The notes beneath the pieces were generated by a model. The model saw only the letters and a program-made list of their open reading frames with translations, ran no database searches and was not told the DNA's origin. From contig CAYSAQ010000002.1 in NCBI GenBank assembly GCA_964429235.1, forward strand, positions 139,571 to 203,570: a DNA stretch of 64,000 nt, given 5' to 3'. Every line of letters starts with the position of its first letter. Within the stretch, counting starts at the first letter, position 1. This document shows, one piece after another, positions 1,277-60,076 of this stretch. The DNA is from an uncultured Candidatus Marinamargulisbacteria bacterium. GTDB taxonomy: Bacteria > Margulisbacteria > Riflemargulisbacteria > GWF2-35-9 > DYQY01. The translations under genes and the position numbers were made by a program.

Positions 1277-3001
1277 CTATTCCCCCTTATTCATATGCGC
1301 ATTAGCTAAAGGCCACTTCCACCTTAACCAACTATATGGCGTAAACTGTGGTGTTCTATTATAATACCAGCGTTTGAATTCTGATTGATTAATGAGTTTT
1401 TTAGATAAAAACTGAAGTTTTTTTTCAAAATACTCCTCATCCTTCCAATACATCTCATATTCAAGCTTATCTTTATTTAGCAGTTGTTTTCTTACTGCAA
1501 CCTCATCACCATAAGTCATTCTTAGCGCTTCCAAGATAGTGTCTATATATTCATAATCACCCAGCTCATCTGAATCCAGCTGTCCTGGTGTGAGCTCTGC
1601 TGATGGCTCTCTATTTATCATATCAAGATCTAACGAATCCTCGCCATTGTCTTTCAGCCAGTTTAAATATTTGATAACCATTGTCGCCGGAATTGAAGCT
1701 ATCAAGGGAAGTCCCAGCAAGTCACCACCTATAGTTCCATACCCAACTGCTGCCTCAGAAAAATTCGTTGTATTCATCACTATTGCATTCTCACTATTTG
1801 CTATAGACCACAAAACATTGGCTCTTACCCTAGCTTGCACGTTCTGATGTGCCAAACTGTTTATTTCTAAATTTAACTGTTTTACGACTGGCTCTACCAT
1901 ACTATCTATAGCCTGCGTCCTCACCTCTATCCCTAGCCCACTTGCTAGCCTCTCCCCTATTTCGTTTGATGCTGGCATAGTATATTCGCCTAGTTTATAC
2001 GGCATCATCACCCCAACTACTTTTTCTGCTCCAAGGTGACGTTTAAGCGCAACGGCTACTGCAGTTGAATCTTTTCCTCCTGACAAACCTAACACAACTT
2101 TATGCTTGGAAAGACCAGACTTGTAAAAATAGTCTTTTAAATAAAGACCAATCATCATATCTAACTCTTGCATGTCACTGCAACTATTCTCAATAGGCTT
2201 CATGTTGTTTATCTCCATTGTTTCAATAACAACACTATCTTCTTCAAAAGCCTTCATTTGTAAGACTAATTCACCCTCTTTATTTAGGACAAAGCTTCTG
2301 CCACCAAATATCAACTCATCTTGAGCTCCAACTATATTCACAAAAACAATTGGAGTATCATAATGTTTTGCTACTTTCGAAAACATGCTCACTCGTTGCT
2401 CTTGCTTGCCAATATAGTCTGGGCTAGCTGAGATATTCACAAATGCCGACAGAACTACTCCCTGCTTCTTTGCTTGCAAATAAAGAGTCTCATATATATC
2501 TGCCTTATAAAGACGGTATTTCTCTTGTAGTCCTGAATGTGGACTATTCCAACCATCCTCACAAATCAGAAAACCAAAATATTCATCACCCAGTTTTCTT
2601 ATACCGACACGTTCCTCTGCGCCTGCCTGGAACCATCTGTTCTCATCAAACTCTTTATAAGTGGGCAAACAAATCTTATCCTGAATGAAGCTATTTTCAC
2701 CGAAAACGCCAAAGGAATTAAACAATCCTTTTTCTCCATGGGCATCATTTTCTCTAGGAAAACCAACACCTATAGAAGAAAGTGTTTCACGTGAAACACT
2801 TTTTAGACTATCAAGACAAACCCTCACATTTCCGCTCAATGTTTTATTAAAGAAAATATCTTGAGAATAATATCCTGTTAAAGAAAGCTCTCCAAAAAAA
2901 TGGGCATCTGCCTGCTTGCCCTCTATCATAGCAAGCATCCTATTAAGGTTTATTAAAGGATTCCCTACTACTGAATTTATCTGATGTAATGCTATTTTCA
3001 T
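1277..3001 (-). CDS. nadE: Glutamine-dependent NAD+ synthetase (N-terminal CN-hydrolase domain plus C-terminal NAD synthetase domain).
   Basis: 574 aa. Contains the SGGKDS PP-loop motif (LGLSGGKDSTAVAVAL). The length and two-domain layout fit glutamine-dependent NadE. Confidence 0.85.
   Translation of the reverse strand: MKIALHQINSVVGNPLINLNRMLAMIEGKQADAHFFGELSLTGYYSQDIFFNKTLSGNVRVCLDSLKSVSRETLSSIGVGFPRENDAHGEKGLFNSFGVFGENSFIQDKICLPTYKEFDENRWFQAGAEERVGIRKLGDEYFGFLICEDGWNSPHSGLQEKYRLYKADIYETLYLQAKKQGVVLSAFVNISASPDYIGKQEQRVSMFSKVAKHYDTPIVFVNIVGAQDELIFGGRSFVLNKEGELVLQMKAFEEDSVVIETMEINNMKPIENSCSDMQELDMMIGLYLKDYFYKSGLSKHKVVLGLSGGKDSTAVAVALKRHLGAEKVVGVMMPYKLGEYTMPASNEIGERLASGLGIEVRTQAIDSMVEPVVKQLNLEINSLAHQNVQARVRANVLWSIANSENAIVMNTTNFSEAAVGYGTIGGDLLGLPLIASIPATMVIKYLNWLKDNGEDSLDLDMINREPSAELTPGQLDSDELGDYEYIDTILEALRMTYGDEVAVRKQLLNKDKLEYEMYWKDEEYFEKKLQFLSKKLINQSEFKRWYYNRTPQFTPYSWLRWKWPLANAHMNKGE
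2781..2800. repeat. 20-bp perfect palindrome AGTGTTTCACGTGAAACACT inside the nadE 5' coding region. It encodes SVSRETL.
   Basis: Exact self-complementary sequence, read directly. It is the same core as the two intergenic copies. Confidence 0.9.
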
Positions 3002-3020
3002 ATCTATATATTATCACTAA

Positions 3021-3036
3021 TGTTTCACGTGAAACA
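3021..3036. promoter_or_regulatory. 16-bp perfect palindrome TGTTTCACGTGAAACA in the nadE/rsmG divergent intergenic region. Candidate operator.
   Basis: Exact palindrome with a CACGTG core, 20 bp upstream of the nadE start codon. Confidence 0.5.
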
Positions 3037-3147
3037 CCAACTTTCCACCTAATTTTAACTATTTCTATAATGATTTTAATGAAAATATTAAAATAATGTA
3101 TTTTTTCGCTACGTTCTCGCTTAAAAATTATACATTTTTGTGGCATA

Positions 3148-3831
3148 ATGTTTCACGTGAAACAATCAAAAGAAAACAACGAATCTTTTAAAAAAATCAT
3201 AGATCTACTACATGAGGAGAATCATCACCACAATCTTTCTGGAATAAAGGACTGGCAAGGGATGTACGCCCAGCACATAGAGGATAGTCTAGCCATCGCA
3301 GAATATATTGAGGCCAATCATCCAGGTGAGGATAAAAAAATACTCGATTTGGGCTCTGGAGCTGGATTTCCCGGCATTGTTATAGCAATATGCAGTCCAA
3401 ACAAAAAAGTAATAATGATAGAATCCAACAATAAGAAAGTTTCATTTATAAAAAAAGCATCTGAATCTATCGGATTAAAAAATACCGAAGCTGTTCTCTC
3501 AAGAATAGAAGAATTCCCAGAACTAGGCGCTGCGGATATTGTATGCGCAAAAGCTCTATCATCGTTAGATGTTCTTCTAGAATATGCTTGCCCTCTCTTA
3601 AAAGTAGGCGGGAGCCTGATTTCCATGAAATCTTTAGATATTGAAGAAGAGCTCGCAAATGCAGCTATTGTTTGGACTGAGCTTGGCTTTGAGGCGCCAA
3701 CACATGTCGCATACTCGGCTTGTGGCAAAAAAAGACAGCTCGTAGTATTTAAAAAAAGTAAAAGTTCAAAAATAAAGCTACCAAGGAATAACGGAGAAGC
3801 AAAAAACAAACCGTTGAGGGGGCTTTTATGA
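3148..3831 (+). CDS. rsmG: 16S rRNA (guanine527-N7)-methyltransferase RsmG (GidB), with a Lys-rich C-terminal tail. The start may instead be the GTG at 3157, because the palindrome overlaps the ATG.
   Basis: SAM-binding motif LDLGSGAGFPGIVIAI. Conserved gene order rsmG-parA-parB. Confidence 0.85.
   Translation: MFHVKQSKENNESFKKIIDLLHEENHHHNLSGIKDWQGMYAQHIEDSLAIAEYIEANHPGEDKKILDLGSGAGFPGIVIAICSPNKKVIMIESNNKKVSFIKKASESIGLKNTEAVLSRIEEFPELGAADIVCAKALSSLDVLLEYACPLLKVGGSLISMKSLDIEEELANAAIVWTELGFEAPTHVAYSACGKKRQLVVFKKSKSSKIKLPRNNGEAKNKPLRGLL
3149..3164. promoter_or_regulatory. Second intergenic copy of TGTTTCACGTGAAACA, overlapping the annotated rsmG ATG. It is preceded by a TGgCATAAT extended -10-like element at about 3141-3149.
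   Basis: Exact palindrome. The CATAAT hexamer with an upstream TG was read directly. Confidence 0.5.
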
Positions 3832-4583
3832 GGATTATATCAATGGTTAACCAAAAGGGTGGAGTAGGCAAAACCACTTCTGCTGTTAACATTGCAGCCA
3901 TGTTGGCAAAAAAAAGCCAGAAAACTTTATTAATCGATCTAGATCCTCAAGCAAATGCTACAAGTGGTCTTGGCTTATATGAAAACAACTACACACATAG
4001 CGTATATGAAGCTCTATTGGGAAATATAGAACCAGCACAGGCAATATACCCGTCTGCTGTTAAAAATCTTTCCGTTATGCCAGCTAGCAAGGATTTGTCA
4101 GGTGCTGAAATTGAATTGGTTTCAGAATTTAATAGAGAAAAGTTTCTTCAAACTATGATAAAGAAAATTGACGGCATGTTTGATATTGTAATAATTGATT
4201 GCCCGCCTTCACTCGGGCTTCTTACTATTAATTCGCTTACTGCCTCTACTGAAATAATAATTCCTGTTCAAGCAGAATATTATGCACTTGAGGGATTAGC
4301 AAGATTGATGCAAACAATCGAATCTGTAAAAAAAGCACTTAACCCAAAACTTTTTATCAAAGGCGTTCTAATAACCATGTATGACAAACGGCTTGGGCTT
4401 AGCAAACAAGTAGAGGAAGAAGCTAGAGATCATTTAAAAGATCTAGTTTTTAAAACAGTGATACCAAGAAATGTAAAACTAAGCGAGGCTCCTAGCTTTG
4501 GCGAGCCAATATCCACATATGACAAAAAATCTAAAGGGGCAAAAGCCTATAAAAATCTAATTAAGGAGTTGCTAAATGGCTAA
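3828..4583 (+). CDS. parA: Chromosome partitioning ATPase ParA/Soj.
   Basis: Deviant Walker A motif KGGVGKTT. 4-nt overlap with rsmG. Confidence 0.9.
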   Translation: MRIISMVNQKGGVGKTTSAVNIAAMLAKKSQKTLLIDLDPQANATSGLGLYENNYTHSVYEALLGNIEPAQAIYPSAVKNLSVMPASKDLSGAEIELVSEFNREKFLQTMIKKIDGMFDIVIIDCPPSLGLLTINSLTASTEIIIPVQAEYYALEGLARLMQTIESVKKALNPKLFIKGVLITMYDKRLGLSKQVEEEARDHLKDLVFKTVIPRNVKLSEAPSFGEPISTYDKKSKGAKAYKNLIKELLNG

Positions 4584-5388
4584 GAAAAAACTTGGCAGAG
4601 GGCTATCTGCATTATTGCCAGAACAAGTAGAAGAAACCAATCAAGAGAGTGGTTTAATAAAAATAGCTCTAAGCGATATTACAACAAACCCCTTTCAACC
4701 TAGAACTCATTTTAATGACAAATCCATTGATGAACTTGCTGCTTCTATAAAAGAAAATGGAGTTATTCAACCAATAGTTGTTAGAAAAGTTCAAACTGGT
4801 TTTGAACTAATTTCTGGAGAACGTAGGCTTCGTGCTACAAAATCTCTAGGAGAAAAGGTAATTCCTGCTATTGTAAAAGAAAATGTGAGCGACAAAGAAA
4901 GTATGCTCATGGCTCTTATTGAAAATATTCAAAGAGAAGACATTAGCCCTATTGAACAAGCAGAATCTTATAAGTTAATCATGAAAGAAAACGACATGTC
5001 ACAAACTGATCTTGCCATTATGATTGGCAAAAGCCGTCCAGTAGTAGCAAACACTATTAGGCTTTTAGAGTTGTCTAGCAACTGCAAAGAGGCACTAGAA
5101 GAGAAAACAATTACAGAGAGTCATGCAAGAAAACTTTTGCAGCTAGATACTCACGGAAAACAAAACAAAATGCTTCTTCAGATAATGAATAACAGCATGA
5201 CTATTAGAGAGATGGAAACAAAAGTTATATCAAAAAAGGCCAAAAAAAATTCTACTCCAACTATCCAAATTAAAAACAACAACTATAAGATTAGCTGTAA
5301 AAAATCTGGAGACAAAGGTAGCTTTACTATTAAGTTTGGTTCTTCTGAAGAGTACAAAAAACTCATCAAGCAGATTGAAACTCTATAG
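4576..5388 (+). CDS. parB: Chromosome partitioning protein ParB/Spo0J.
   Basis: GERRLRA ParB box. HTH region. Overlaps the parA stop. Confidence 0.9.
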   Translation: MAKKKLGRGLSALLPEQVEETNQESGLIKIALSDITTNPFQPRTHFNDKSIDELAASIKENGVIQPIVVRKVQTGFELISGERRLRATKSLGEKVIPAIVKENVSDKESMLMALIENIQREDISPIEQAESYKLIMKENDMSQTDLAIMIGKSRPVVANTIRLLELSSNCKEALEEKTITESHARKLLQLDTHGKQNKMLLQIMNNSMTIREMETKVISKKAKKNSTPTIQIKNNNYKISCKKSGDKGSFTIKFGSSEEYKKLIKQIETL

Positions 5389-24879: not shown

Positions 24880-24961
24880 CTTTTCCGTTCTTACATTTTT
24901 GTACTTACATATTTAATCTATAGTTTCTGCGTTGCCAAAAAAAAAAATCTTTGTTACGATA

Positions 24962-24985
24962 CTTATCAACAATGAGTTATCCACA
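24962..24985. promoter_or_regulatory. DnaA boxes immediately upstream of the dnaA start: TTATCCACA (perfect, 24977..24985) and TTATCAACA (24962..24970).
   Basis: 9-mers read directly from the sequence. Established DnaA-box consensus TTATCCACA. Confidence 0.7.
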
Positions 24986-24995
24986 AGTAAATAAC

Positions 24996-26375
24996 ATGGC
25001 TATAAGCATCATAGATGTATGGGAAAAAGTTGATGGCTCCCTTCAGGAAAAGCTGGGCAAAATTTCCTATTCAACATTTCAAAAGGCCGTTAAGCCAATA
25101 TCTTTTTTAAATAATGCACTTGTATTGGGTGTTCCTAATAATTTTATGAAAAAATGGGTTAATGATAAGTGTGATTTTTATATAAAACAATCGGTATTAC
25201 AAAACTTTGATATGAACATTATTATTGAATTAACAATAAATGATCAAATGTATCAGCAAATAGAAGAAGACACGAGAGAAGACGTCGCTATTTCTGAACA
25301 AAGTGTTTCTTCGTCACATCGTCAAGTTTTTGACATTCAACCTCAAGCCTCTGCATATATGTTAAACCCTAAATATACTTTCGACTCTTATGTTGTTGGA
25401 CAGAGTAATAGATTTAGTCATGCTGCTTCACTTGCTGTTTCAAAGGCACCTGGTAAAGCATATAACCCTTTCTTTATTTATGGAGGTGTCGGGCTTGGCA
25501 AAACTCACCTTATGCATGCTATTGGTCATAAAGTAAAAGATATTCATCCTTATTTGAAGGTTATTTATATAACTGCTGAAGAATTTACCAATGATTTAAT
25601 AGGTTCACTTCAAAAAGGTAAAATTATGGAGTTTAGGGAAAGATATCGTAATATAGATCTCTTAATGGTTGATGATATTCAGTTTATTGCTGGTAAAGAA
25701 AAAACAGAAGAAGAATTCTTTCATACTTTCAACTATTTATACCAACTTAATAAACAAATTATTCTTACTTCTGATAGATTACCAAAAGACATCCCTTCAA
25801 TTCAAGATAGGCTTAAATCTAGATTTGAATGGGGACTCTCTGCAGATATCCAAGCTCCAGATTTAGAAACTAGAATGGCAATCTTGTATAAAAAACTAGA
25901 ACCTGAGTTCCAGAATATTCCTCAAGATGTTATTTACTATATTGCTTCTCAAATTCCTGGTAATGTAAGGGAATTAGAAGGTGCTTTAATAAAAATTATT
26001 GCTTATTCTTCACTAATTAACCAAGAAATAAATATTAATTTAGCTAAAGATGTTATTAAAGATATTGTTAAAAAAAATAACAAAAAACCAATATCTATTT
26101 CTAAAATAAAAAAAGCTGTATCTGAGTATTATGATATTGAATATGAAAACCTATCAGCTAAAATTAGAACTAAAGAAATTGCGCATGCTAGACAAGTTGC
26201 TATGTATTTATGTAGAGATCTTACTAATTTTTCTTTGCCTAAGATAGGGGAAAAATTTGGTGGTAGAGATCACACTACCGTAATGCATGCTTGTGATAAA
26301 ATTAGGACTGAAATTAAAAAGAATCATGATTTAAAAAGTGCTTTAAATCAAATTAAAACTACTCTTATAGATTAA
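24996..26375 (+). CDS. dnaA: Chromosomal replication initiator DnaA. The start is placed at the ATG at 24996, downstream of the DnaA boxes, rather than at the ORF-track start of 24951.
   Basis: Walker A GGVGLGKTHL. DnaA signature domain IV. Followed by dnaN. Confidence 0.9.
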   Translation: MAISIIDVWEKVDGSLQEKLGKISYSTFQKAVKPISFLNNALVLGVPNNFMKKWVNDKCDFYIKQSVLQNFDMNIIIELTINDQMYQQIEEDTREDVAISEQSVSSSHRQVFDIQPQASAYMLNPKYTFDSYVVGQSNRFSHAASLAVSKAPGKAYNPFFIYGGVGLGKTHLMHAIGHKVKDIHPYLKVIYITAEEFTNDLIGSLQKGKIMEFRERYRNIDLLMVDDIQFIAGKEKTEEEFFHTFNYLYQLNKQIILTSDRLPKDIPSIQDRLKSRFEWGLSADIQAPDLETRMAILYKKLEPEFQNIPQDVIYYIASQIPGNVRELEGALIKIIAYSSLINQEININLAKDVIKDIVKKNNKKPISISKIKKAVSEYYDIEYENLSAKIRTKEIAHARQVAMYLCRDLTNFSLPKIGEKFGGRDHTTVMHACDKIRTEIKKNHDLKSALNQIKTTLID

Positions 26376-26595
26376 ATTAACCTGTGTATAATAATGTGGA
26401 TAAACTATTAATATAATCTGTATAAAAGTAAAATATATAAAAATGAGATATAATTGTTATTAACTTTGTATATCTCCTAGATAGAATGTGGAGAGAATTT
26501 ATAGATAGGTATCAAGAATTTTTAACTTATACCACATACTAACAGCTATGAGTATGAGTAGTTGAATTTTAAATAAGCAATAAGGAGTACTAATA
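26376..26595. promoter_or_regulatory. Probable oriC: an AT-rich dnaA-dnaN intergenic region with DnaA-box-like 9-mers.
   Basis: TGTGGATAA at 26395..26403 (perfect reverse complement of TTATCCACA). TGTGTATAA at 26383..26391. Further degenerate copies. Very AT-rich. Confidence 0.6.
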
Positions 26596-27708
26596 ATGAA
26601 CATAACTTGTGAAAAAAACAAACTTTTAAAGATCTTATCAATCAGCATGAATTCAGTAAGCGAAAGAACAACTGTAGAAGCACTTAAATGCTTTAAGGTT
26701 GAAGCTAAAAGCAATTTATTAATGATTACTACAAATAACTTAAAGACAAATATTATTTGTTCATTAGATGCCAGTGTTGATTCTGAAGGTGTTACATTAG
26801 TACATGCAAGAACATTTTATAATATTATAAGTAAACTTCCATCTGAAGAAGTATCAATGTATTTAAGTGATAATAATACCTTACTTATTACAAGTGGTGA
26901 GTCTACTTTTAATATATTTACTGCAAATCCAGATGAGTTTCCTGAAAATATGGTTATTGATGAATATAAAGAAATTAAGCTTAGTAAAGATATGTTTAAG
27001 GATATGGTAAGAAGAGTTGCTTTTGCTGCTTCAGAAGAAGAAGAGAAAGTAATTTTAAATGGAGTATTAGTAGAAATAGATAGTGAAAATAATAAAATGG
27101 TATTTGTTGCAGCTGATGGTTATAGATTAGCGAAAGATAATATAAAATTTGAGGGAGATGATTCTTATAAAGTAATTATTCCAATAAAAACTATTAAAGA
27201 AATAATTTCAGTATTTTCAGTAAAAGATATTGAAGATATAAAAATAAGATTAAGTGAAGATAAAATTTTATTTATATTAGATGATATCCAAATGTATTCA
27301 AGAGTAATAAATGGTCAATTTCCTGATTATAATTTATTAATACCAAGTGAAAAGAATTTAGATATTAAGATTAAAAGAAAAGAATTTTTATCAGCATGTG
27401 AAAGAATAAATATTATTGCTCAAAGAAATTCATATATGGTTAAGATAGAGATAATTAATAACGCATTAGTTATTTCATCAGTAACTCCAGATTTTGGTGA
27501 TGGAAGTGAAAAACTAAAAATAAAAGTAGAAGGTGATACTACAATAAGTGTAGTTTTTAATGTAAAACTAATGATGGATGTTTTAAAAAGTTTAGAAAGT
27601 GATGATATAAATATAGAAATAATTAATGATGAAAAGCCATTAATTATCAAAGAAAGCACAAATCAGGATTATATTTATATTATGATGCCTATAAAAGTTA
27701 AGAGATAA
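26596..27708 (+). CDS. dnaN: DNA polymerase III beta sliding clamp.
   Basis: 370 aa in the conserved position after dnaA. MNITCEK...LLK N-terminus typical of the beta clamp. Confidence 0.85.
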   Translation: MNITCEKNKLLKILSISMNSVSERTTVEALKCFKVEAKSNLLMITTNNLKTNIICSLDASVDSEGVTLVHARTFYNIISKLPSEEVSMYLSDNNTLLITSGESTFNIFTANPDEFPENMVIDEYKEIKLSKDMFKDMVRRVAFAASEEEEKVILNGVLVEIDSENNKMVFVAADGYRLAKDNIKFEGDDSYKVIIPIKTIKEIISVFSVKDIEDIKIRLSEDKILFILDDIQMYSRVINGQFPDYNLLIPSEKNLDIKIKRKEFLSACERINIIAQRNSYMVKIEIINNALVISSVTPDFGDGSEKLKIKVEGDTTISVVFNVKLMMDVLKSLESDDINIEIINDEKPLIIKESTNQDYIYIMMPIKVKR

Positions 27709-28727
27709 TGCTCCTCGAGAGTATTTACTTATATAATTTTAGAAATCATTTAGATCAAAAATTTACTTTTAATTCTTTAAATAATTTAATTATAGCTTCT
27801 AATGGTTGCGGAAAAAGTAACTTAATAGAGGCTATTAATTTTTTTTCTATAGCAAGATCTTTTAAGACAAATGTAAATAGAGAAGTAGTGAGTTTTGGAA
27901 ACAAAGAAGCTTCTTTAATTGGCGAAATTAAAAACCAAAGAAAAAGTAAATTAAAGATTATTTTCAAAGAAGACGGATCAAAAAAAATAATAGTAGATAA
28001 TAATGTTTTAAAAAAAAGTTCAGATTTATTAAAAGAATTTACAACAATATTAATTTCACCTAATGATATTTCAATAATAGAAGGATCACCTAGTATTAGA
28101 AGAAAGTATTTAGATACTATTTTATTTAAAATAGATGATGGCTATATGGAATTAATGAAGAGATATAAAAAGGTAGTAGATATAAAAAGAAAGTTATATA
28201 AAGAAAAAATAATAAATGAAACACTATTGTCAATTTATCAAGAGAAATTAGAGAAAGATAATAAACAAATAGTAATAAAAAGAGAAAAACTCTTAAAAGA
28301 ATTAACAAAAGAAGCAAATGCTTATTTAAAAAAGTATTATCCTAAGGTTGGTGAAATTAATATCAATTATAATAATACCTTTTTAAATTTAGATTTAGAA
28401 AGGGAAATAAGATACCATGAATGTTTATATGGATCACATAGAGATGATCTGGAAATAAGTTTAAATAAAGAGATTTGTAAGAAGTTTAGCTCAACAGGAG
28501 AAAAAAGATTAGTAAGTTTATTATTAAAAATAAGCGAAAAAGAGATATTTAATAAAACATCTAATATTAAACCAGTAATATTAATAGATGATGCTTTTTT
28601 AGGCTTAGATGACGAAAGACAAAGAATAATTTATGATTTAATTGATAATGATCATCAGAAAATCATGACAGCAACAGATGATAAACATATAGATTTAATA
28701 AAACAACCAAACGTAATAAGGATATAG
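27708..28727 (+). CDS. recF: DNA replication and repair protein RecF.
   Basis: Walker A NGCGKSNLIEAI. Conserved position. Confidence 0.85.
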   Translation: MLLESIYLYNFRNHLDQKFTFNSLNNLIIASNGCGKSNLIEAINFFSIARSFKTNVNREVVSFGNKEASLIGEIKNQRKSKLKIIFKEDGSKKIIVDNNVLKKSSDLLKEFTTILISPNDISIIEGSPSIRRKYLDTILFKIDDGYMELMKRYKKVVDIKRKLYKEKIINETLLSIYQEKLEKDNKQIVIKREKLLKELTKEANAYLKKYYPKVGEININYNNTFLNLDLEREIRYHECLYGSHRDDLEISLNKEICKKFSSTGEKRLVSLLLKISEKEIFNKTSNIKPVILIDDAFLGLDDERQRIIYDLIDNDHQKIMTATDDKHIDLIKQPNVIRI

Positions 28728-28728
28728 A

Positions 28729-29547
28729 GTGCAACATTTAAAAGAAATACTGTGGAACTTTCAAAATAAGAATATTAAAGAAAGTATGAAAATAAAAACT
28801 ATTTATCAGGAAGTAGTAAATAAAAATATAGTAGCAGTAACAAGTGATATCGTTTATAAAAACAGAACATTGACCATTTATGTAAAAGATACGGCATGGG
28901 CCGCCCAGCTGATGCAGTATAAACATAAAATATTAAAAAGAATAAAAGGAATAGTAAAAGACATCAAAGAAGTAAAAATAAAAGTATCTTTTGAAGGACA
29001 AGAGGAGAATGAGTCTGAACAAGAACAGATAAAAAGCAGACGAATAAAAAAAGACATGACCGGGCTAATAAATGAAATAAATAATTGTGACGATAAATAT
29101 AGAGATAAAGTAAAAAGTATAATATTAAAGTCAGCTAAAGAGTATGAACATGTTTGTGGAGCTTGCGGCAGTCCAATATTATCAAAGAAAAGCAATTTTT
29201 GTGCATTATGTATTCATAGAAACAAAGCATCAAAAGTGGATAAGGTGAAAGAGATACTAGAGCATACTCCATGGTTAAGGTATGAAGATATAGAGCCAGA
29301 GCAGAGAAATAGCTTCGATTACACAGCTTATATGCAAGAAAAGAAATTTAAAATTAACCGAATTCGTGATATTATTACAAATGAGTATTTTGATATTAAA
29401 AAAAATGAAAAATCGAATTTAGAGGTATTTAAAACCAAAATAGAGGAATTGGTTATTTTAAAACTAAGCATTGAGCCCTCAGGACTGACGGAACAGAGCA
29501 TAGAAAACAATATTCCAAAAAAATGGCTTAAAGTATATAAAAGTTAA
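28729..29547 (+). CDS. DUF721-like protein in the recF-gyrB position, with a C4 zinc-ribbon-like motif.
   Basis: Position between recF and gyrB, as for DUF721/YaaA-like genes. Contains CGACGSP...CALC. Confidence 0.45.
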   Translation: MQHLKEILWNFQNKNIKESMKIKTIYQEVVNKNIVAVTSDIVYKNRTLTIYVKDTAWAAQLMQYKHKILKRIKGIVKDIKEVKIKVSFEGQEENESEQEQIKSRRIKKDMTGLINEINNCDDKYRDKVKSIILKSAKEYEHVCGACGSPILSKKSNFCALCIHRNKASKVDKVKEILEHTPWLRYEDIEPEQRNSFDYTAYMQEKKFKINRIRDIITNEYFDIKKNEKSNLEVFKTKIEELVILKLSIEPSGLTEQSIENNIPKKWLKVYKS

Positions 29548-44958: not shown

Positions 44959-46605
44959 GTGAATACAGCAAAAAAAATCTTGCTATTGGGGTTAATATTC
45001 TTCACTTTTTGTGGGTCTGTTAATGCTCAGACTTTATTAGAAGATCAGAGACACATAGAGCTAACAGTGCAGACAGCGCTTGATAGAATCCTGGGTCAAG
45101 GCAATTCTATAGTTTATATTTCATTAGTTGGAGAATCTGAAAAGTGGGAAATTAATTATACAGCTGTTCCTGAAATTGCTGGTGTTGATATGGAGAGTAT
45201 GGGTGGCGGCGGAGGTCAGCAGACGGTAGTTCCTGGTATCCCTTCTTTGCGTTTTTTAACTAAAGGCGGAGGTTCCGAGGGAATTCCTTTAAATTATGAA
45301 ATAGTGCAACGTCCACCTATTGTAAACAATAAAGAAGTTGTCCTTATATTAGATAAAAAGATAAAAATGGGTGAGCTTAGGTCTGCAAAAGTATTCATTA
45401 CGAAGTTTTTAGGGCTGGATGAAAATAATGGAGACACATTAACAATATTAAAAGAAAGTTTCTCTACAATACAAAAAGCAGGGAAATCAGCATCAAGTGT
45501 TACGACAAAGAAAAAAAGTAACTTTACTCCAATCATTATAATAGCCTCTATTGTTTTACTTTTATTAATAATTGGAATAGTCCTTATGAAGTTATTGCCA
45601 GGTAAGGATAAAAAAGATGGCACCGGGTTAGGCGGAGGAGAAGAAGAAGATTCAGCAGCTGCAGCTGCAGCAGCGGCAGCAGGTTCAGGAGCTGGAGCTG
45701 CTGCAGCTGCAGCTGGTGGAAGTTCGGGCAGTGGTGAAGGTGGAGCAGATCCTGGAGCCGGCGGAGCTGGAAGTGAAGGCGGAGCATTAGGAGCCGGCGG
45801 AGCTAAAATGTCAGATGCAGAAAAGAAGAAGAGAGCCGAAGAATTAAAGAAGCAGGTTGAGGATGATTCCCGCAAGAAAGAAGAAGAAGCGAAACTCCTA
45901 GATATGCAAAAAGGTATTTTAGGAAATGGTGAAAGATATTTTAATTTTATAGATGAGGAAAACATTTATAAATTAAAATTTTTACTACAAGTAAAAATAG
46001 CTCTTCAGCAAGCAACACCTAGAACAATTGGCGTTGTTATGGCTTGCTTACCATTTAAACTAGCTGCTTCAATTTTGGTTGAATATCCAGCGAAGATACA
46101 AGCGGAAATAGTTAATAATATTATTTTTTTACAGCACTATCCTGAAACAGAGATGTCTGAGTTGGAAAAAGAAATAGAAGAAAACATAAGCTATTTATTT
46201 GGTGGCAAGAATAGACTTAAGTTAATAATAGAAAGAATACCAGGAGATGCTAAGAAGAGAATATTAGAAATCATTTCTAGCAAATACCCAGGAATAGCTA
46301 ATGAGGTTAATTCGTTAATATTCTTGTTTGAAGACTTGTTGATATTAGGAGAAGATGTTCTGACAAGAATTTTTGGAGACATTGATACAGAAGTTATTGC
46401 TACAGCACTTGTACATATTGATTCAGATCTTCAGAAGAAAGTGGTTAATACTTTAGCAAAAGGTGTTCAAGCGATGGTTGATCAATGGCTAGCACTTAAA
46501 GCAAATACAGCATCTAAGTTTGATATTGAAGAAGCAAGGCAGAAAGTCTTGAACTACGCTCAACATTTAGAGCGAGAAGGGTTTATTGAGCTGAAAAATG
46601 GTTGA
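44959..46605 (+). CDS. Membrane protein made of a FliF/YscJ-like ring-building motif, a TM segment, a Gly/Ala linker and a cytoplasmic FliG-like domain. It has FliF-FliG fusion-like topology. GTG start.
   Basis: Signal/TM N-terminus (cleavage-like VNA/QT). The periplasmic segment ALDRILGQGNSIVYISLVGESEKWEINYTAVP and ...LRSAKVFITKF... resembles FliF RBM blocks (RIEAILSPIVGNGNV..., KSARVHLAMP). TM IIIIASIVLLLLIIGIVLM. The C-terminus ...FEDLLILGEDVLTRIF...LAKGVQAMVDQ...DIEEARQKVLNYAQHLEREGFIE matches the FliG C-terminal consensus (EEAQQKIVNIVRRLEEAGEI). Confidence 0.55.
   Translation: MNTAKKILLLGLIFFTFCGSVNAQTLLEDQRHIELTVQTALDRILGQGNSIVYISLVGESEKWEINYTAVPEIAGVDMESMGGGGGQQTVVPGIPSLRFLTKGGGSEGIPLNYEIVQRPPIVNNKEVVLILDKKIKMGELRSAKVFITKFLGLDENNGDTLTILKESFSTIQKAGKSASSVTTKKKSNFTPIIIIASIVLLLLIIGIVLMKLLPGKDKKDGTGLGGGEEEDSAAAAAAAAAGSGAGAAAAAAGGSSGSGEGGADPGAGGAGSEGGALGAGGAKMSDAEKKKRAEELKKQVEDDSRKKEEEAKLLDMQKGILGNGERYFNFIDEENIYKLKFLLQVKIALQQATPRTIGVVMACLPFKLAASILVEYPAKIQAEIVNNIIFLQHYPETEMSELEKEIEENISYLFGGKNRLKLIIERIPGDAKKRILEIISSKYPGIANEVNSLIFLFEDLLILGEDVLTRIFGDIDTEVIATALVHIDSDLQKKVVNTLAKGVQAMVDQWLALKANTASKFDIEEARQKVLNYAQHLEREGFIELKNG
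45631..45810 (+). repeat. GC-rich simple-sequence tract (GCAGCT/GGAGC units) encoding a poly-Ala/Gly linker.
   Basis: gcagctgcagctgcagcagcggcagcagg... read directly. It stands out against the AT-rich background. Confidence 0.8.
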
Positions 46606-47359
46606 TAAAGAAAATATAAAGAATTTAGCAAGTACCGAGGTAGTTGATATTGATAAAGTAAAAGGTGAGTTTTTTGCTTATATAAATAAGGAAAATGCTT
46701 ATCATACTGCCCATGTATTAAAAAAGATTATAAAATCCAAGTCAGAAAATATTAAATACCTATATTTAGTTATTTTTTCAGCTGACCCAGAGATAGCCGA
46801 GAGAATAATGGATGAATTTGAAGATGACATGAAGGCTCAGATAATTGCAGAAATGATGTCACTAATACAATTTACAAAAAAAGAAATAGAGCAGTTTGAT
46901 AAAATATTAAGGAAATTACTAACAGAACAATTTGGCGGAAGATATGTTTTATCAAAGATAGTTGAATATTTAGATATAGATCAAAAAACGAATCTAAATG
47001 ATACAGTTGCTTCAAGATATCCCGATACGTCTGCGGCATTTAGAAAAATTATGCTGTTCTTTGAAGACCTTTTCAATGTTTCGGATAAGGATTTTGTTAG
47101 AATTTTTTCTGAAGTACCAACAGACGTATTATCAATAGCTTTTTGTCAGTTATCAGAGGATAAGATCGAAAAGCTTTACGGAGTTATTCCTAAGGGAGTA
47201 AAGAATATGGTTCAGCAAGGGATAGAGTTTGGTAAGAATAAATATTCCAAAACAGAAATAAAGAAAGCTCAACAGTATGTAATTGAGTATTCTAGAAATC
47301 TCGAAAGAGACGGATTTATTGAGTCTATTCTAGGGGAAGAAGTAGGCAAGGATAGTTAA
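46598..47359 (+). CDS. Short cytoplasmic FliG-like protein (ARM-like N/M repeat plus FliG C-terminal domain).
   Basis: PEIAERIMDEFEDDMKAQIIAEMM resembles a FliG-N/MgtE_N repeat. The C-terminus FEDLFNVSDKDFVRIFSEVPTDVLSIAFCQLSEDKIEKLYGVIPKGVKNMVQQ...KTEIKKAQQYVIEYSRNLERDGFIE matches FliG_C. 8-nt overlap with the upstream gene. Confidence 0.55.
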   Translation: MVDKENIKNLASTEVVDIDKVKGEFFAYINKENAYHTAHVLKKIIKSKSENIKYLYLVIFSADPEIAERIMDEFEDDMKAQIIAEMMSLIQFTKKEIEQFDKILRKLLTEQFGGRYVLSKIVEYLDIDQKTNLNDTVASRYPDTSAAFRKIMLFFEDLFNVSDKDFVRIFSEVPTDVLSIAFCQLSEDKIEKLYGVIPKGVKNMVQQGIEFGKNKYSKTEIKKAQQYVIEYSRNLERDGFIESILGEEVGKDS

Positions 47360-47384
47360 GTAACTTTAGATTGGGGGAATCTGA

Positions 47385-48173
47385 ATGGAAATATTAGTTT
47401 TTGTTGGACTTATTAGTGTTTTTGTAGTTCTTACATTAGCAGTTCCTGACGTATTCATCAATCCCGCAGCATATTTTCAGGCACCAGCCGGAATAATGGT
47501 AATTGGTGGTGTAGCGTCACTGTTTATGATTGGTTCTACCTGGGATGACATTAAAGGTGTTTTCGCTGCTGTTAAAACCTTGTTCAAAAAAGATAAAATT
47601 CCTACACATATTGAAATAGCAGATAAGCTAGTAGAGTTATCAGTACTTTCTCAGAAAGAAGGTCGTCGTGCCTTAGAAGATGCTGGAGAAGGTTTTGATG
47701 ACGGATTTTTGAACAACGGGTTACAAATGATTGTAAACAAGTTGCATCAGGATTTTATTAGAGTTGTGCTTGAAAACGAGATACAAGAGATAGACTCTAG
47801 GCATATGAAGAACATAGACGGAATACACTTTATGGGAACAATTGCACCACTAACAGGTATGTTTGGAACAATTGTTGGTATAGTCCAGGTATTACAGAAT
47901 ATGACAGACCCAAAGAATGTAGGCCCAGCTATGGCACTAGCATTATTAACAACACTATATGGTGTATTTGTTTCAGGATTTATCATGCAGCCGATAGCAA
48001 AGAGACTGGCTAATAAAAATGATCATGAACTTCTTAGTAAAACGATTATGATTGAGGGATTAATAATGATTGCAAAAGGCGAAATCCCTATAAAGGTAGA
48101 AACATATTTAAGAGGATTTTTGTCTAATAAAGCTAAGAAAGAGAAAAACCAAGAGAGCGAAGCTAAGGGGTAG
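47385..48173 (+). CDS. motA: MotA/PomA-family stator ion-channel protein.
   Basis: Four TM segments with a long cytoplasmic loop between TM2 and TM3. HFMGTIAPLTGMFGTIVGIVQ...GPAMALALLTTLYGVFVSGFIMQPIAKRL is the MotA_ExbB signature. Confidence 0.75.
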   Translation: MEILVFVGLISVFVVLTLAVPDVFINPAAYFQAPAGIMVIGGVASLFMIGSTWDDIKGVFAAVKTLFKKDKIPTHIEIADKLVELSVLSQKEGRRALEDAGEGFDDGFLNNGLQMIVNKLHQDFIRVVLENEIQEIDSRHMKNIDGIHFMGTIAPLTGMFGTIVGIVQVLQNMTDPKNVGPAMALALLTTLYGVFVSGFIMQPIAKRLANKNDHELLSKTIMIEGLIMIAKGEIPIKVETYLRGFLSNKAKKEKNQESEAKG

Positions 48174-48178
48174 TAGTT

Positions 48179-48880
48179 ATGCCCAAATTAAGACGCAAGA
48201 AATCAAGAAGTGGTGGAGATGGTAATTTCTTTACTATATGGGCGGATTTTAATTCTTTTTTAATGATTCTTTTTTTATTGCTTTATACGTTTGTTATGAA
48301 CAATGTTTCTGAGTCTGAACAGCAACAAGTATTTGAGTCTATCCGAGTTTCTTTGCAAGGACAACAACTACAACCACTGATTGATAAAGAAAAACCAAGT
48401 GAAGAGAGAATGAATGTAGTAGATAAGGTTAAACAATATATTCAGGATCAAAAATTAAGCGATTTTTTGAATGTAATGGTAGAAGAAAGCAAGGTAAGGA
48501 TTATTTTGGCTCAGCCTATATTGTTTGATACTGCAGAAGCAGAGTTGAAGCCGGAAGCAATGGATATTTTGAGGGATATTGGAAATATATTAAAAAAAAC
48601 CGATAATAAAATTGTGGTAGAAGGGCATACTGATAATGTACCGATTAGAAATGCAAAATATGAATCGAATTGGGACCTTTCTTTTGATAGAGCCTATTCA
48701 GTTATTAAGTACTTTATAGAGAAAGTGGAAATATCGCCAATAAGGATACATGCGATTGGTTATGGCGAGTATAGACCGATGATGCCTAATGATTCGGATG
48801 AGAATAGAGCGGCAAATAGGCGTATTGAAATTAATATTATGTTGCAAGAAGTTTTTGTTAACAATGTTTTAGGTGGATAA
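48179..48880 (+). CDS. motB: MotB-family stator protein with a C-terminal OmpA-like peptidoglycan-binding domain.
   Basis: The TM segment FFTIWADFNSFLMILFLLL carries the conserved channel Asp. C-terminal VEGHTDNVPI...SNWDLSFDRAYSVIKY...ANRRIEI is the OmpA_C signature. Confidence 0.75.
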   Translation: MPKLRRKKSRSGGDGNFFTIWADFNSFLMILFLLLYTFVMNNVSESEQQQVFESIRVSLQGQQLQPLIDKEKPSEERMNVVDKVKQYIQDQKLSDFLNVMVEESKVRIILAQPILFDTAEAELKPEAMDILRDIGNILKKTDNKIVVEGHTDNVPIRNAKYESNWDLSFDRAYSVIKYFIEKVEISPIRIHAIGYGEYRPMMPNDSDENRAANRRIEINIMLQEVFVNNVLGG

Positions 48881-48892
48881 TCTGGGGGATAA

Positions 48893-51800
48893 ATGAAAAA
48901 GTTTTTATTAATATTTTTTATATGTATGATTAGTATAGGCTATTCGTTTACAAATAAAGCACATCAAACAACTACCAACTATATGCACGCTTATCAGGAC
49001 ATGTATATAAGAACAACAGATGGACTTGCCCTTACAGTAAATATTGGCGGATTAGTAATAATTACAGCAGACGAGAGCGATAACTGGGGAGTAGTTGCAG
49101 GCTTAGACCAATTAGCAAGTAGTAAAGTGATTCACGATGTCGGGTATAATGTTAAATATGTTTTAAGAGATGATAAATCTTTTGAGCAAGGTGTGCAGTA
49201 TATAATCACGGTTAATCTTGGTGGAGCAATTTCAACTAAAAATGTGACGTTTAACATGCAGTATGTTATTCGTTCTGTGACTATAGATGTTGCGGAGAAA
49301 TATAGAAATTCGGTTGTTGGAGATGATTGGTTTAAAGGCGGCCTTAAGAATACAGATTACGATGATGCCAATTTAAGTATAACGGGGATGGTTACATATA
49401 GATATGAGACAGAAGTATTTCCATCTCAGAATAAGCCGGTATATATAGAGCTATATATATCTGATGATATACAATCCAATAAATCTTCAGTAGGCGCAGA
49501 TGGCATTTTTGTTTTAAATAATTTTTCAATACCTGTTGTTGATGGTTTGAAACCATATGTTTCCGTTGATATTGAGGATTTGTCAGATTTATTATTATAT
49601 AAACCTGGATCAATAACAAGGTTTAAAATAGCTATTGATAATCAAGCACCACTAGAAACTACAGAGACGTCCTTAAATTTTAAAGCTGATAATACAGACA
49701 AAGATGGAGATGGTGTTTTTCCTGAACCAGGATATTTTGATCAAGCAATAGTCACATTTTCTCTCCGTGGCACTATGGGTGATTCTGGCAAGAGTGGCTT
49801 AAGCACTAATATGTGGGTTCTCGACCCAAAAATAGATGATGTTCTTAATCCCTTTGAAAACGGATGGTTAACAGATAGGGCAACTTCTTTTAATGTAGAT
49901 TTTGAGACAGAAACAGGCATTATAAAACAAGGAAGAAAAGAAGTTATAGTTTATATTATTGACAACGTTTTTAATTATGCCACGAGAAGTATTTTTGTAA
50001 CAATAGACGTAGATGCGCCTCAAGATTTTGCAGTAATTATTTCGGAAGATACAGATAATAACGGAGACCAAATAACTCCAAATATTGGCTGGTATAACGA
50101 TGAGACAGTTAGTTTTAATTGGAGTGTGCCATATGACGCAATTGGTTTAAAGAGTAGTCCCTATCAGTTTAAAAGTGAGGCAGGCTGGGTGTCTTGGTCT
50201 GCATTATTTAACAATGATGTTAATAATGATGTTATTTCTGGAAACTATCAATCTTTATTAGAGGGCTGGGTTACAGTTGATGCTGGAGGAGATGTTTTAA
50301 GAAAAGTATATGTTCGGGCTGCTGATAGAGCGGGAAACGTTGTCGTAGCATATGCTAGCATTAAAGTAGACAATATAGAGCCAACGGTTAACATTGTACT
50401 TGAAGACGATGGGTCATTCATAGATGGGGCTCCTATATATATTAAACCTAAAACAGGTTGGTATCATGATTTTGATGTTGAATGGAACATGTCCGGCGTT
50501 CAAGACGATGCTCAATTACATGATAAGCCAATCAGGTATAGATATTTATATGGAAACAGTAATACTACAACTACAGCCTGGTTAATAAATGAAGGAAGAA
50601 AGGAAGTTTCTTCAGATGAAAGACCAACAGGAAATATATTTTTATTACAAGCAAGAGACCAAGCAGGAAATATTGGAGAGGCAACTGCAAATGTGTATGT
50701 AGATACAACCGCCCCCGTTCCTACAAGTTTTGATATGCTTTTTGAGGCAGATACTACTGATGCCAATGAAGATGGTGTTTTTCCCGAAATAGGTTGGTAT
50801 GATCAGACAACAATTAATTTAATGTTGACATGGGATAGTTGCATAGAAGATGGGGGAATATGGAAAACAGGATTATATTTGCATGGCCCAGTATTTGTAT
50901 CTTCCCAATTAGTTGTCTCGGGAAATCAAGATTATGGAGAGTTAGAGTTATTTAGAGAACCACCAGAAGATGTTCAGCAAGTTAAGTTTCTTGCATTGTT
51001 AGTTGATAATGCTGGAAACATGGCACAGTTGACGCAAAAGTGGGTTTATGTTGATTTAACAAAACCAGAGAATTTTTTGGTTACCTTGGCACAAGATAGT
51101 GATTCTGGAGATGATGGGTTAGACCCTGCAGGTGTTTGGTATGATGATAATACTATTGAGTTTGATTGCGATTTAAGTCCGCAGGCAGATACCTCCTTGA
51201 AAGCAGCTCCATATCAATTTAGAGTAAATCAGGGCGAATGGCAAAGTGCCACAATCAACGGCTCGGTTGCAAATTTTTTGGTTAGTGATAATGCCTCAAG
51301 CGCAGTAGAAGTTCGTTTAATGGATATGGCAGGGAATGTAACCACAAGGTCAATCAGCGTTACCGTTGATTCAGTTGTACCATCTGGCAGCTTTGTATTA
51401 AATTTGGCCGAAGATGATTCAAATGATGGCTTTACCCAGCTTACCCCAGATGCTGGATGGTATAACCAGAACTTGGTTAGCTTTAAGTTTAATTCTAGTT
51501 TTGGCATTGTTGATACCTTCAATATACGGGAATACGGATATTTCTTAAAAAGAGAAATAGATCAAGTTTATGTAAATGGGAAAAGCGATTCCAAAAATGC
51601 AATGATATATTTAGAAAACGAAGGAGCAACAGAAAAAACAATAGTAGGAGCTATTTCTGATATGGCAGGAAATGTCATAGAGGCTAGTACGAAAGTGTTT
51701 GTTGATACCGATGCTCCAGTAGCAGAGTTTGAAATTAGAATAGAAAATGATACTACCGACGATGGTGATGATGGTTATTATCCAGAAGAAGGTTGGCATG

Positions 51801-58976: not shown

Positions 58977-60076
58977 TTAAGACTATCGTTGTTTCCTTTC
59001 AAGGTATATGGGTTTCCTCTTTTTCAGAGACGCAGTTAGCAAGTTTAAAAAGAAGGAGAAACATTGTTCTGCCCATTGGCAAGGTAACAGTGCCTACGTC
59101 CATGCAAGAGGAAATGATTCGTTTTTTAAGTCTATATTATTCTGAAGGTGAGAATCTGTACGGATTATTGGTTAAATATCAGCAAGTTGTAGATAAGAAG
59201 ACAAGAAAAATAGTTAAGATGCTGTTGTATAAGCTTAGGCAGGGCGAAGATTTTTGTGAAGTAATCTTAAGCGAAAGATTGTTTTGTGCCGAGGTTAGGC
59301 CATTGTTTTTAGCGGCAAGAGCACAGGGGTTATCTAAAGAGAAGCTTCTCGCAATGTCTGTAATACTAAAAAACAAACAGAAGGATAAAAAGGAGCTAAT
59401 AAAGAAAGCTATTTATCCGGCGCTGCTTGTGTGTATGAGTATGAGTATGCTTGTGTTTGTTTCTTATAATGTTATTCCAAGTTTTTCAGTTTTTTTTCAA
59501 GATAGTGGCAAGCAGGTGCCATTTTTATTAAAGGTTCTTAGTAGACAAAACGTATGGAAGTTATTGCTGGGATTGATTTTTATCGTGATGTTAGTTTGCT
59601 TCTTTTTTAAGTGGTTGAAGCCACAAATAAAGGTAAAAATACCATTGTATAGACAAAAAATTGCAGCAGTGTTTCAAGAGATTTTCTGGAGGATAAATTT
59701 AGTAGCAGTCGAAACAGGAATATCAGTTGAAGAGTTGCTTGATGACTATTTGCAACAAGATAAAAAAAGCATAGAGGGGTTTTATTTATCAACAATTCAT
59801 TCAAGGTTAAAAAGAGGGTTGTCTATGGAAGAGGCAATAGATGTTTTATTAATTGATAAAAAACAAAAAGCTTTATTGGGTATGGGCACAGATCAAGAGA
59901 GAAAAAAGCTTTTGTATTATAGTTTCTTAGAGGAAATAGAAGAGAGAAACCAACAATATCAAGGTTTAATAGTAAATATTATTAGCGGGGCAGCAATGCT
60001 TTTTATTGCAGGACTAGTCTTGTTACTTGGATATGTTTTGCTTATTCCCTTAAGTCAGATTAGTAACTTTATTTAG
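58970..60076 (+). CDS. Type II secretion / type IV pilus platform protein F family (GspF/PilC/TadC-like), divergent.
   Basis: Three hydrophobic TM segments. AIYPALLVCMSMSMLVFVSYNVIPSF...VPFLLKVL resembles the T2SSF domain. Only one clear repeat, so the assignment is tentative. Confidence 0.45.
   Translation: MLVKTIVVSFQGIWVSSFSETQLASLKRRRNIVLPIGKVTVPTSMQEEMIRFLSLYYSEGENLYGLLVKYQQVVDKKTRKIVKMLLYKLRQGEDFCEVILSERLFCAEVRPLFLAARAQGLSKEKLLAMSVILKNKQKDKKELIKKAIYPALLVCMSMSMLVFVSYNVIPSFSVFFQDSGKQVPFLLKVLSRQNVWKLLLGLIFIVMLVCFFFKWLKPQIKVKIPLYRQKIAAVFQEIFWRINLVAVETGISVEELLDDYLQQDKKSIEGFYLSTIHSRLKRGLSMEEAIDVLLIDKKQKALLGMGTDQERKKLLYYSFLEEIEERNQQYQGLIVNIISGAAMLFIAGLVLLLGYVLLIPLSQISNFI

Follow-up and report, generated by a model that had tools for sequence, protein, structure and literature searches.

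The window analysed here, a 64-kb stretch of DNA from an uncultured Margulisbacteria-type organism, contains a pair of divergent genes followed by a partition operon. On the minus strand lies nadE (1277..3001), encoding a glutamine-dependent NAD+ synthetase with Pfam NAD_synthase and CN_hydrolase domains; on the plus strand, rsmG (gidB; 3148..3831; Pfam GidB, 5.9e-45; TIGR00138, 154.9 bits against a 99.5-bit cut-off) opens an operon that continues on the same strand with parA (soj; 3828..4583) and parB (spo0J; 4576..5388). The 251-residue ParA protein matches the Pfam AAA_31, CbiA and ParA models, with the AAA_31 match starting at residue 1 and a deviant Walker A motif (KGGVGKT) at residues 10-16; it is a Walker-type partition ATPase devoid of an N-terminal DNA-binding domain, as expected of the ParA of a ParABS system. 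ParB (270 residues) contains ParB_N (1.8e-31) and HTH_ParB (7.8e-30) domains, scores 173.7 bits against the 58.45-bit cut-off of TIGR00180, and finds its closest solved relatives among the Spo0J/ParB/Noc proteins (1e-44 to 1e-47). The motifs LGRGLSALL, GERRLRA and ENIQRE are all present, giving the protein the domain pair and CTP-binding GERRxRA box of a cognate ParB.

Distributed across the divergent start region are three exact, strandless copies of the palindrome TGTTTCACGTGAAACA. The first (parS-1, 2783-2798) falls within the 5' coding sequence of nadE (CDS nucleotides 204-219), where it encodes V-S-R-E-T; the second (parS-2, 3021-3036) falls between the two genes, 20 bp ahead of the nadE ATG and 128 bp upstream of the third; and the third (parS-3, 3149-3164) overlaps the annotated rsmG start (ATG at 3148), beginning at its T and encoding F-H-V-K-Q. 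The original prediction had placed identical 16-bp palindromes in these three contexts, correctly, and had extended the intragenic copy to 20 bp; the dyad there actually reaches 24 bp (2779-2802, AAAGTGTTTCACGTGAAACACTTT), whereas all copies, and their counterparts in relatives, have only the 16-bp core in common. No further match to TGTTTCACGTGAAACA was found at up to three mismatches anywhere in the window, such that all copies are packed into 382 bp; shuffled sequences gave a mean of 0.38 matches at the same threshold, and none of 100 shuffles reached three. Each copy is identical at 16 of 16 positions to the universal chromosomal parS consensus TGTTNCACGTGAAACA, as quoted in PMC7022226, and fits the 16-bp inverted repeat tGTTNCACGTGAAACa by which chromosomal parS is recognized. 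The parS of Hyphomonas neptunium given in that review is the same sequence, TGTTTCACGTGAAACA.

Examination of the remainder of the window places these sites near a replication origin. The dnaA-dnaN genes and flanking oriC region occupy 24951..27708 on the plus strand (Pfam Bac_DnaA and DNA_pol3_beta), with dnaA starting at 24951; GC skew switches sign at about 24-26 kb, GC content falls to 0.24 at 26-28 kb, and perfect DnaA boxes occur at 24977 and 26395. The palindrome cluster therefore sits roughly 22 kb from dnaA/oriC, the proximity expected of chromosomal parS, and parA and parB lie 0.7-1.4 kb downstream of the sites. An Rfam scan of the whole window returned a single tRNA and no family at the parS locus. 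Elsewhere in the window, a MotAB/FliG cluster drew only generic MotB-type PADLOC matches to ZorB, with no ZorA, and its assignment as a Zorya system was rejected.

The residues that govern ParB specificity also fit parS. Alignment to Spo0J and Noc gives R/T/E/S at the four determining positions (Arg at 173, no Lys at 179 or 184, Ser at 201), which assigns the protein to the parS-binding class, as opposed to the QKKR pattern of Noc, with a minor deviation at position 201. Extant natural ParBs are reported to carry an invariant Gly201, as do L001 and L002, both of the relatives compared at that residue; deep mutational scanning, however, has found that R173 is invariant and S201 allowed among parS-specific variants.

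We compared the locus with three relatives whose ParB is 63-66% identical (L001, L002 and L003) and three whose RsmG is 41-52% identical (L086, L087 and L088). Despite differing upstream genes, the sites are kept base-perfect at homologous positions in these Margulisbacteria relatives, with an exact parS-3 at the identical position in all six, and each of the 13 closest RsmG homologues begins with MFHVKQ or MFHVKH. All six relatives have a further exact parS upstream of the one at the rsmG start, at a distance of 70-132 bp in L002, L003, L086 and L088, 659 bp in L001 and about 2.4 kb in L087. L001 and L003 also preserve an exact counterpart of parS-1 at the same position in the nadE coding sequence, where it forms the sole invariant run of at least 9 nt in the first 110 codons; all six of its third-codon positions are invariant, against a background of 22%, and the encoded VSRET is not conserved among solved NadE homologues. 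Gene content and sites are separable: in L002, L086 and L087 the place of nadE is taken upstream by radical-SAM genes, hemerythrin genes and a restriction-modification pair, respectively, yet parS is retained, and L088 has nadE but lacks the intragenic site. Other lineages likewise have parS either at the start of rsmG or in the interval separating it from mnmG, and one further locus (L089) carries the same parS at a jag-rsmG junction. A metagenome scan with a ParB alignment recovered 80 loci, including a single close relative (L003); most of the distant loci had no parS within 5 kb and were uninformative for the Margulisbacteria clade. Taken together, the comparative footprinting ties the sites to rsmG-parAB rather than to nadE or other neighbors, and points to strong purifying selection on them independent of adjoining genes.

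Consensus identity, adjacent cognate genes, parS-type ParB residues, origin proximity and purifying selection on the sites lead us to conclude that the three palindromes are very probably chromosomal parS, the cis-acting centromere of a ParABS system; its genes, rsmG-parA-parB, start from the third site. Judging from studied systems, ParB dimers would use their helix-turn-helix domains to recognize each 16-bp dyad, then bind CTP, close as a clamp and slide onto flanking DNA; such clamps would build a partition complex across the origin-proximal region, a structure at which SMC is commonly loaded and which ParA-ATP would move to separate replicated copies of the origin region. We infer that ParB binding, spreading and segregation operate at these sites in this manner. 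The finding is real but ordinary, of a kind already known, and its main value is the correction of an annotation-level reading: the sites would mark the chromosome centromere and confirm that the window lies close to the origin of a Margulisbacteria-type genome equipped with a complete ParABS system, serving as a landmark for orienting metagenome assemblies and for choosing heterologous ParB/parS labeling sites.

The reading to be corrected took the palindromes for operators of a dimeric NAD-metabolism regulator, either NrtR/NiaR/Rex-like or novel, that would control nadE by looping over its promoter and by a roadblock at the intragenic copy. Two of the three sites do flank the nadE start, the half-sites superficially resemble those of Rex, and the general notion of specific DNA binding by a dimeric protein with a helix-turn-helix survives; assignment to a NAD regulator does not, as the sequence is the parS consensus. 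Linkage to rsmG-parAB where nadE is not adjacent (L002, L086, L087), the ParA and ParB genes directly downstream, and the nadE of L088 without its site all argue against NAD-salvage control. Rex itself had been set aside in the original prediction, and we agree: the half-sites are opposite in arrangement with no spacer, and the Rex box TTGTGAA-N6-TTCACAA has no match at up to two mismatches in the window. Pfam scanning of almost all window ORFs of at least 70 aa yielded no Rex, NiaR, NrtR or other candidate regulator (three short ORFs of 83-119 aa and one of 107 aa had no Pfam match), so that no regulator gene accompanies the sites among the ORFs scanned; across the relatives, the sites do not track NAD genes. 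We therefore consider NAD-regulator operators highly improbable, and looping or a roadblock unnecessary given the parS reading; nadE is simply a neighbor with no functional tie to the sites.

Two further explanations fare no better. Because the top PDB matches of ParB are, by a small margin, Noc proteins, and the highest-scoring NCBIfam model is TIGR04285 (noc), the protein might be a nucleoid-occlusion paralogue acting on NBS-like sites instead of a segregation ParB; the TIGR04285 score, however, is 233 bits, below that model's 315-bit cut-off, the R/T/E/S residues differ from Q173/K179/K184/R201, the NBS palindrome ATTTCCCGGGAAAT is absent from the window at up to two mismatches, parB shares an operon with parA, and Noc is confined to Firmicutes (PMC7383237). 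The chance that Noc accounts for the locus is accordingly negligible. A perfect palindrome present three times in 400 bp could also be a short dispersed repeat of the REP/MITE type, an alternative the original prediction had itself named, or a set of transcription-terminating hairpins. Dispersed repeats should be numerous, share flanks and favor intergenic DNA, but these copies number three in 64 kb, all clustered, share nothing beyond the core, and include one that lies in frame within a gene and is conserved there; moreover, scanning of 2700-3300 detected no terminator-like sites, and no Rfam family covers the locus. We regard a repeat or hairpin origin as next to impossible.

With the palindromes read as parS, the position of the third site raises a secondary issue. 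A consensus scan identifies a putative rsmG-parAB promoter on the plus strand at 3121..3149, comprising a -35-like TTAAAA (3121-3126), a 17-nt spacer, a TG at 3141-3142 and a -10-like CATAAT (3144-3149); the extended -10-like TGgCATAAT noted in the original prediction just upstream of the third copy is thus present, at 3141-3149, and conserved in relatives. Across seven genomes, a -35-like TTnAnA, the 17-nt spacer and a TGnNANAAT whose last base is the first of parS are all conserved (invariant TG, A2 and T6, plus TT at the -35 position), with diverged flanks. Transcription is predicted to start at about 3155-3157, inside parS-3, and rsmG has no Shine-Dalgarno sequence; a second possible in-frame start, GTG at 3157, lies 7 nt past the -10 element. 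On the minus strand, inspection of the sequence reveals an extended -10-like TGATAATAT at 3008..3016 that ends 6 nt before the nadE ATG and is conserved in L001 and L003 as GTGATAA[A/T]AT. The nadE promoter is possibly leaderless, in which case parS-2 would cover its -20 to -35 region. Another minus-strand promoter-like arrangement, GTGAAA-18-TATAAT (3156 to 3127), with its -35 element within parS-3, was set aside, since relatives do not preserve its TATAAT.

In all relatives examined, parS-3 adjoins a conserved extended -10 element and overlies the predicted start, so that ParB occupancy may feed back negatively on rsmG-parAB. This arrangement suggests dual use, an extension of the parS explanation and not a replacement for it, in which parS-3, and here parS-2, would also serve as operators: ParB over the rsmG-parAB start would autorepress the operon, and ParB at -20 to -35 would dampen a leaderless nadE promoter. 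We hold this idea tentatively, as one with perhaps a minority chance of being right. In its favor are the promoter elements abutting parS in seven genomes with diverged flanks, the lack of a Shine-Dalgarno sequence together with the nearby GTG, and the known repression by ParB of promoters that overlap parS in plasmids (PMC4010829) and in Pseudomonas aeruginosa (PMC7022226). Yet two of the -10 bases, A and T, are under constraint from the ATG and parS as well, which partly explains their conservation without a promoter; the chromosomal parAB operons of Bacillus subtilis and Vibrio cholerae are reported not to be autoregulated; the jag-rsmG junction of L089 has parS with no promoter; and the distance from the intergenic site to the nadE ATG is variable, at 20, 25, 56 and 18 bp. 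It is similarly doubtful, though conceivable, that a single 25-bp stretch holds three overlapping codes (the extended -10 element of rsmG-parAB, the annotated ATG and parS), with a start inside parS, a possibly leaderless, GTG-initiated rsmG mRNA, and autoregulation of the operon by ParB. ParB bound here may, in any case, affect the nadE and rsmG promoters as a side effect. If autorepression were true, the locus would contain a hard-wired chromosomal ParB feedback loop of a kind that neither B. subtilis nor V. cholerae was found to have; the conserved promoter/parS overlap at rsmG offers a simple, testable case and is the sole forward-looking point of this analysis.

Comparison with known systems sets the locus among chromosomal centromeres. 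The Rex operator has the TTCAC/GTGAA pentamers in common with these palindromes, but its half-sites are oppositely oriented and separated by a spacer, and no Rex gene was found among the window ORFs scanned, nor any linkage to NAD genes in the relatives. The Noc-NBS systems of Firmicutes involve a ParB paralogue of the same fold with about 45% sequence similarity and a related 14-16-bp palindrome; they differ in the NBS itself, in the QKKR residues and in the pairing with ParA seen here. For a side effect on rsmG-parAB and nadE, the models are P. aeruginosa, in which ParB represses promoters overlapping parS3 and parS4 upstream of PA0011 and PA0013 (PMC7022226), and the operators of plasmid ParB/KorB, in which a ParB-family protein at a promoter-overlapping parS-like site represses transcription (PMC4010829). 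Repression was measured in those cases, whereas here it is suggested by geometry and conservation. The parS of B. subtilis Spo0J-Soj, Caulobacter, Hyphomonas, Corynebacterium and Thermus is the same 16-bp palindrome as ours, and the resemblance to chromosomal ParABS extends to a few copies clustered near oriC beside parAB and to a ParB with ParB_N/HTH_ParB domains and a GERRxRA box. As in B. subtilis, where one parS lies within spo0J, sites within coding sequence are tolerated. What distinguishes the present system is its host, an uncultured Margulisbacteria-type organism, the Ser at the position equivalent to G201 of Caulobacter ParB, and the grouping of three sites within 382 bp where the operon begins, one of them fused to the rsmG start codon.

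The 16-mer TGTTTCACGTGAAACA occurs in three exact copies in the 64-kb window: inside nadE (1277-3001, minus strand) at 2783-2798 (parS-1), 20 bp upstream of the nadE ATG at 3021-3036 (parS-2), and at 3149-3164 (parS-3), where its first base is the T of the rsmG ATG (3148). The perfect dyad of parS-1 spans 24 bp in full (2779-2802). No fourth copy was found within the window at three or fewer mismatches, and shuffled sequence yielded a mean of 0.38 matches at this tolerance and never three; the trio is a real, highly non-random feature. The original prediction had described these sites accurately, with the copies, their positions and the TGgCATAAT before the third copy all confirmed, and its view of them as sites for a dimeric DNA-binding protein, not a dispersed repeat, stands. 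Comparison with TGTTNCACGTGAAACA, given in a review of chromosomal ParB systems as the parS consensus for Bacillus, Corynebacterium, Burkholderia chromosome I and others (PMC7022226), revealed a match at 16 of 16 positions. We assign the palindromes to a ParABS system of a Margulisbacteria-type genome, as its canonical parS centromere.

Downstream of the third copy lie rsmG (3148-3831), parA (3828-4583, with the deviant Walker A motif KGGVGKT) and parB (4576-5388, with ParB_N and HTH_ParB domains), all on the plus strand and with overlapping, operon-like ends. The encoded ParB scores above the TIGR00180 cut-off, aligns end to end with solved Spo0J/ParB structures (1e-44 to 1e-46), and carries an N-terminal LGRGLSALL peptide and a GERRLRA box. 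Because its best PDB matches were, by a slight margin, Noc proteins (ParB paralogues in nucleoid occlusion), we inspected the four residues by which specificity for parS versus the Noc-binding site (NBS) is judged (Caulobacter positions 173, 179, 184 and 201; PMC7383237). The window protein has R-T-E-S at the equivalent positions and Noc has Q-K-K-R; among parS-specific variants in deep mutational scanning, R173 is invariant, position 179 accepts all residues but P, D and E, position 184 accepts any residue, and position 201 accepts G, C, S or T (PMC7383237). Together with a score under the cut-off of the NCBIfam Noc model and no match to the NBS sequence in the window, these residues led us to reject a Noc identity and to classify the protein, by sequence, as a parS-type ParB. 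The Ser in question (residue about 182, ITESHARKL) is equivalent to Caulobacter G201, where Gly is described as absolutely conserved in extant ParBs and Ser is tolerated in mutational scans (PMC7383237).

The cluster lies near the origin. Here dnaA (24951-26375, plus strand) opens the gene order dnaA-dnaN-recF and a DciA-domain gene (28729-29547), spanning 24951-29547 and followed by gyrB and gyrA. GC skew switches sign at about 24-26 kb, GC content drops to 0.24 at 26-28 kb, and perfect DnaA boxes occur at 24977 and 26395, which together with the position of dnaA place the parS cluster about 22 kb from oriC, a typical distance for parS. DnaA boxes at 24963-24985 follow the annotated TTG start of dnaA, whose true start may thus lie further downstream. 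Elsewhere in the window, genes for two FliG-domain proteins (44959-46605, FliG_M and FliG_C; 46598-47359, FliG_C) neighbor those for a MotA/ExbB-family protein (47385-48173) and a MotB/OmpA protein (48179-48880), followed by a 2594-aa ORF (48893-56677) that has no Pfam or PADLOC match. No further flagellar genes lie nearby. This cluster (44959-56677) resembles a module of stator/rotor type coupled with a giant protein; Zorya was rejected, as PADLOC gave only generic MotB-to-ZorB matches and no ZorA. A 1245-aa ORF (60073-63810, minus strand), likewise lacking Pfam or PADLOC matches, lies at the end of the window, in a segment of low GC (0.31) and reversed AT skew.

The palindromes had been proposed to be operators of an NAD regulator controlling nadE. 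This proposal fails on their identity with the parS consensus, on the absence of any Rex box from the window and of any Rex/NiaR/NrtR-type gene among the window ORFs scanned, on the variable distance from the intergenic site to the nadE ATG (20, 25, 56 and 18 bp), and on the retention of the palindromes where nadE is absent. The closest genomes found were the Margulisbacteria MAGs L001 (Candidatus Termititenax sp.) and L002 (Candidatus Riflemargulisbacteria), whose ParBs are each 63% identical to that of the window and, unlike it, have Gly at the G201 equivalent; the ParB of metagenome contig L003 is 66% identical. L001 and L003 each have three exact parS sites in the same places as the window (at the matching nadE codon, shortly before the nadE ATG, and over the rsmG ATG), and L002 has two at the rsmG start, 70 bp apart, with radical-SAM/SPASM enzyme genes instead of nadE upstream. 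In L001, an extra 126-aa ORF (4146-4526), preceded by a strong Shine-Dalgarno sequence and lacking Pfam matches, is inserted between nadE and rsmG, putting parS-2 and parS-3 659 bp apart. All three deeper loci examined carry an exact parS on the rsmG ATG and a second one upstream, beside hemerythrin genes (L086), an NgoPII-type restriction-modification pair (L087) or nadE (L088). Since the sites are kept under differing upstream genes, they travel with rsmG-parAB, not nadE. The L087 pair, a restriction endonuclease and a DNA cytosine methylase (1914-3825), immediately precedes the rsmG parS, showing that genes turn over on the upstream side of the par operon.

In a large protein collection, all 13 closest RsmG homologues (41-64% identity) begin with MFHVKQ or MFHVKH, the translation of ATG plus parS. 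When nadE is compared over its first 110 codons between the window, L001 and L003, no invariant stretch of at least 9 bases occurs apart from parS, and third-codon positions within parS-1 are invariant at 6 of 6, versus 22% elsewhere (p roughly 1e-4); solved NadE homologues do not conserve the VSRET that it encodes. Among unrelated lineages, parS lies between mnmG and rsmG in three (L041, L062 and L079), at the rsmG start in L005 and at the jag-rsmG junction in L089, making parS adjoining rsmG a recurrent, ordinary arrangement.

In seven of seven Margulisbacteria loci, an extended -10-like element (TGgCATAAT, TGtCATAAT, TGtAATAAT, TGcTAAAAT or TGcTACAAT) abuts the rsmG-start parS with no gap; all loci share the TG, the A at hexamer position 2 and the final T. 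Conservation of this element, and of a TT at the -35 position 17 nt upstream of it, despite divergence of the surrounding AT-rich DNA, would be consistent with an rsmG-parAB promoter on which ParB sits, although the ATG and parS themselves account for part of the conservation, and L089 has the same parS at a gene junction without a promoter. Were the element the operon promoter, the transcription start would fall within parS, about 6-8 nt beyond the element and past the annotated ATG; the in-frame GTG at 3157 would become a candidate leaderless rsmG start, and ParB would occupy the promoter of its own operon. ParB represses promoters overlapping parS on plasmids (PMC4010829) and at P. aeruginosa parS3/parS4 (PMC7022226); the parAB operons on the B. 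subtilis and V. cholerae chromosomes reportedly lack autoregulation (PMC4010829).

On the nadE side, 6 nt separate the nadE ATG from the end of a similar extended -10-like element, TGATAATAT (3008-3016, minus strand). The motif GTGATAA[A/T]AT is conserved here (window 3002-3016, minus strand; L001 3894-3909; L003 about 3428-3445), ending 6-7 nt before the ATG in all three; this proximity and the lack of a Shine-Dalgarno sequence before the nadE ATG suggest a leaderless nadE mRNA. In the window genome, parS-2 would span -20 to -35 of this putative promoter, but this spacing is not conserved, so that parS-2 would probably affect nadE only incidentally, if at all.

Standard ParABS partition is the best-supported reading of the locus, its mechanism resting on knowledge of the family, not on data from this organism. 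The three dyads would serve as nucleation sites for ParB dimers, which would bind CTP, close into clamps and slide, forming a partition complex over the flanking origin-proximal DNA that ParA-ATP would then move. SMC is commonly loaded at such ParB-parS complexes. A parS cluster beside parAB is of an already known kind, and the parS of Hyphomonas neptunium is exactly TGTTTCACGTGAAACA (PMC7022226), the same 16 bases as the window palindromes. The putative overlap of promoter, start codon and parS would be one modest, testable twist of this otherwise known arrangement.
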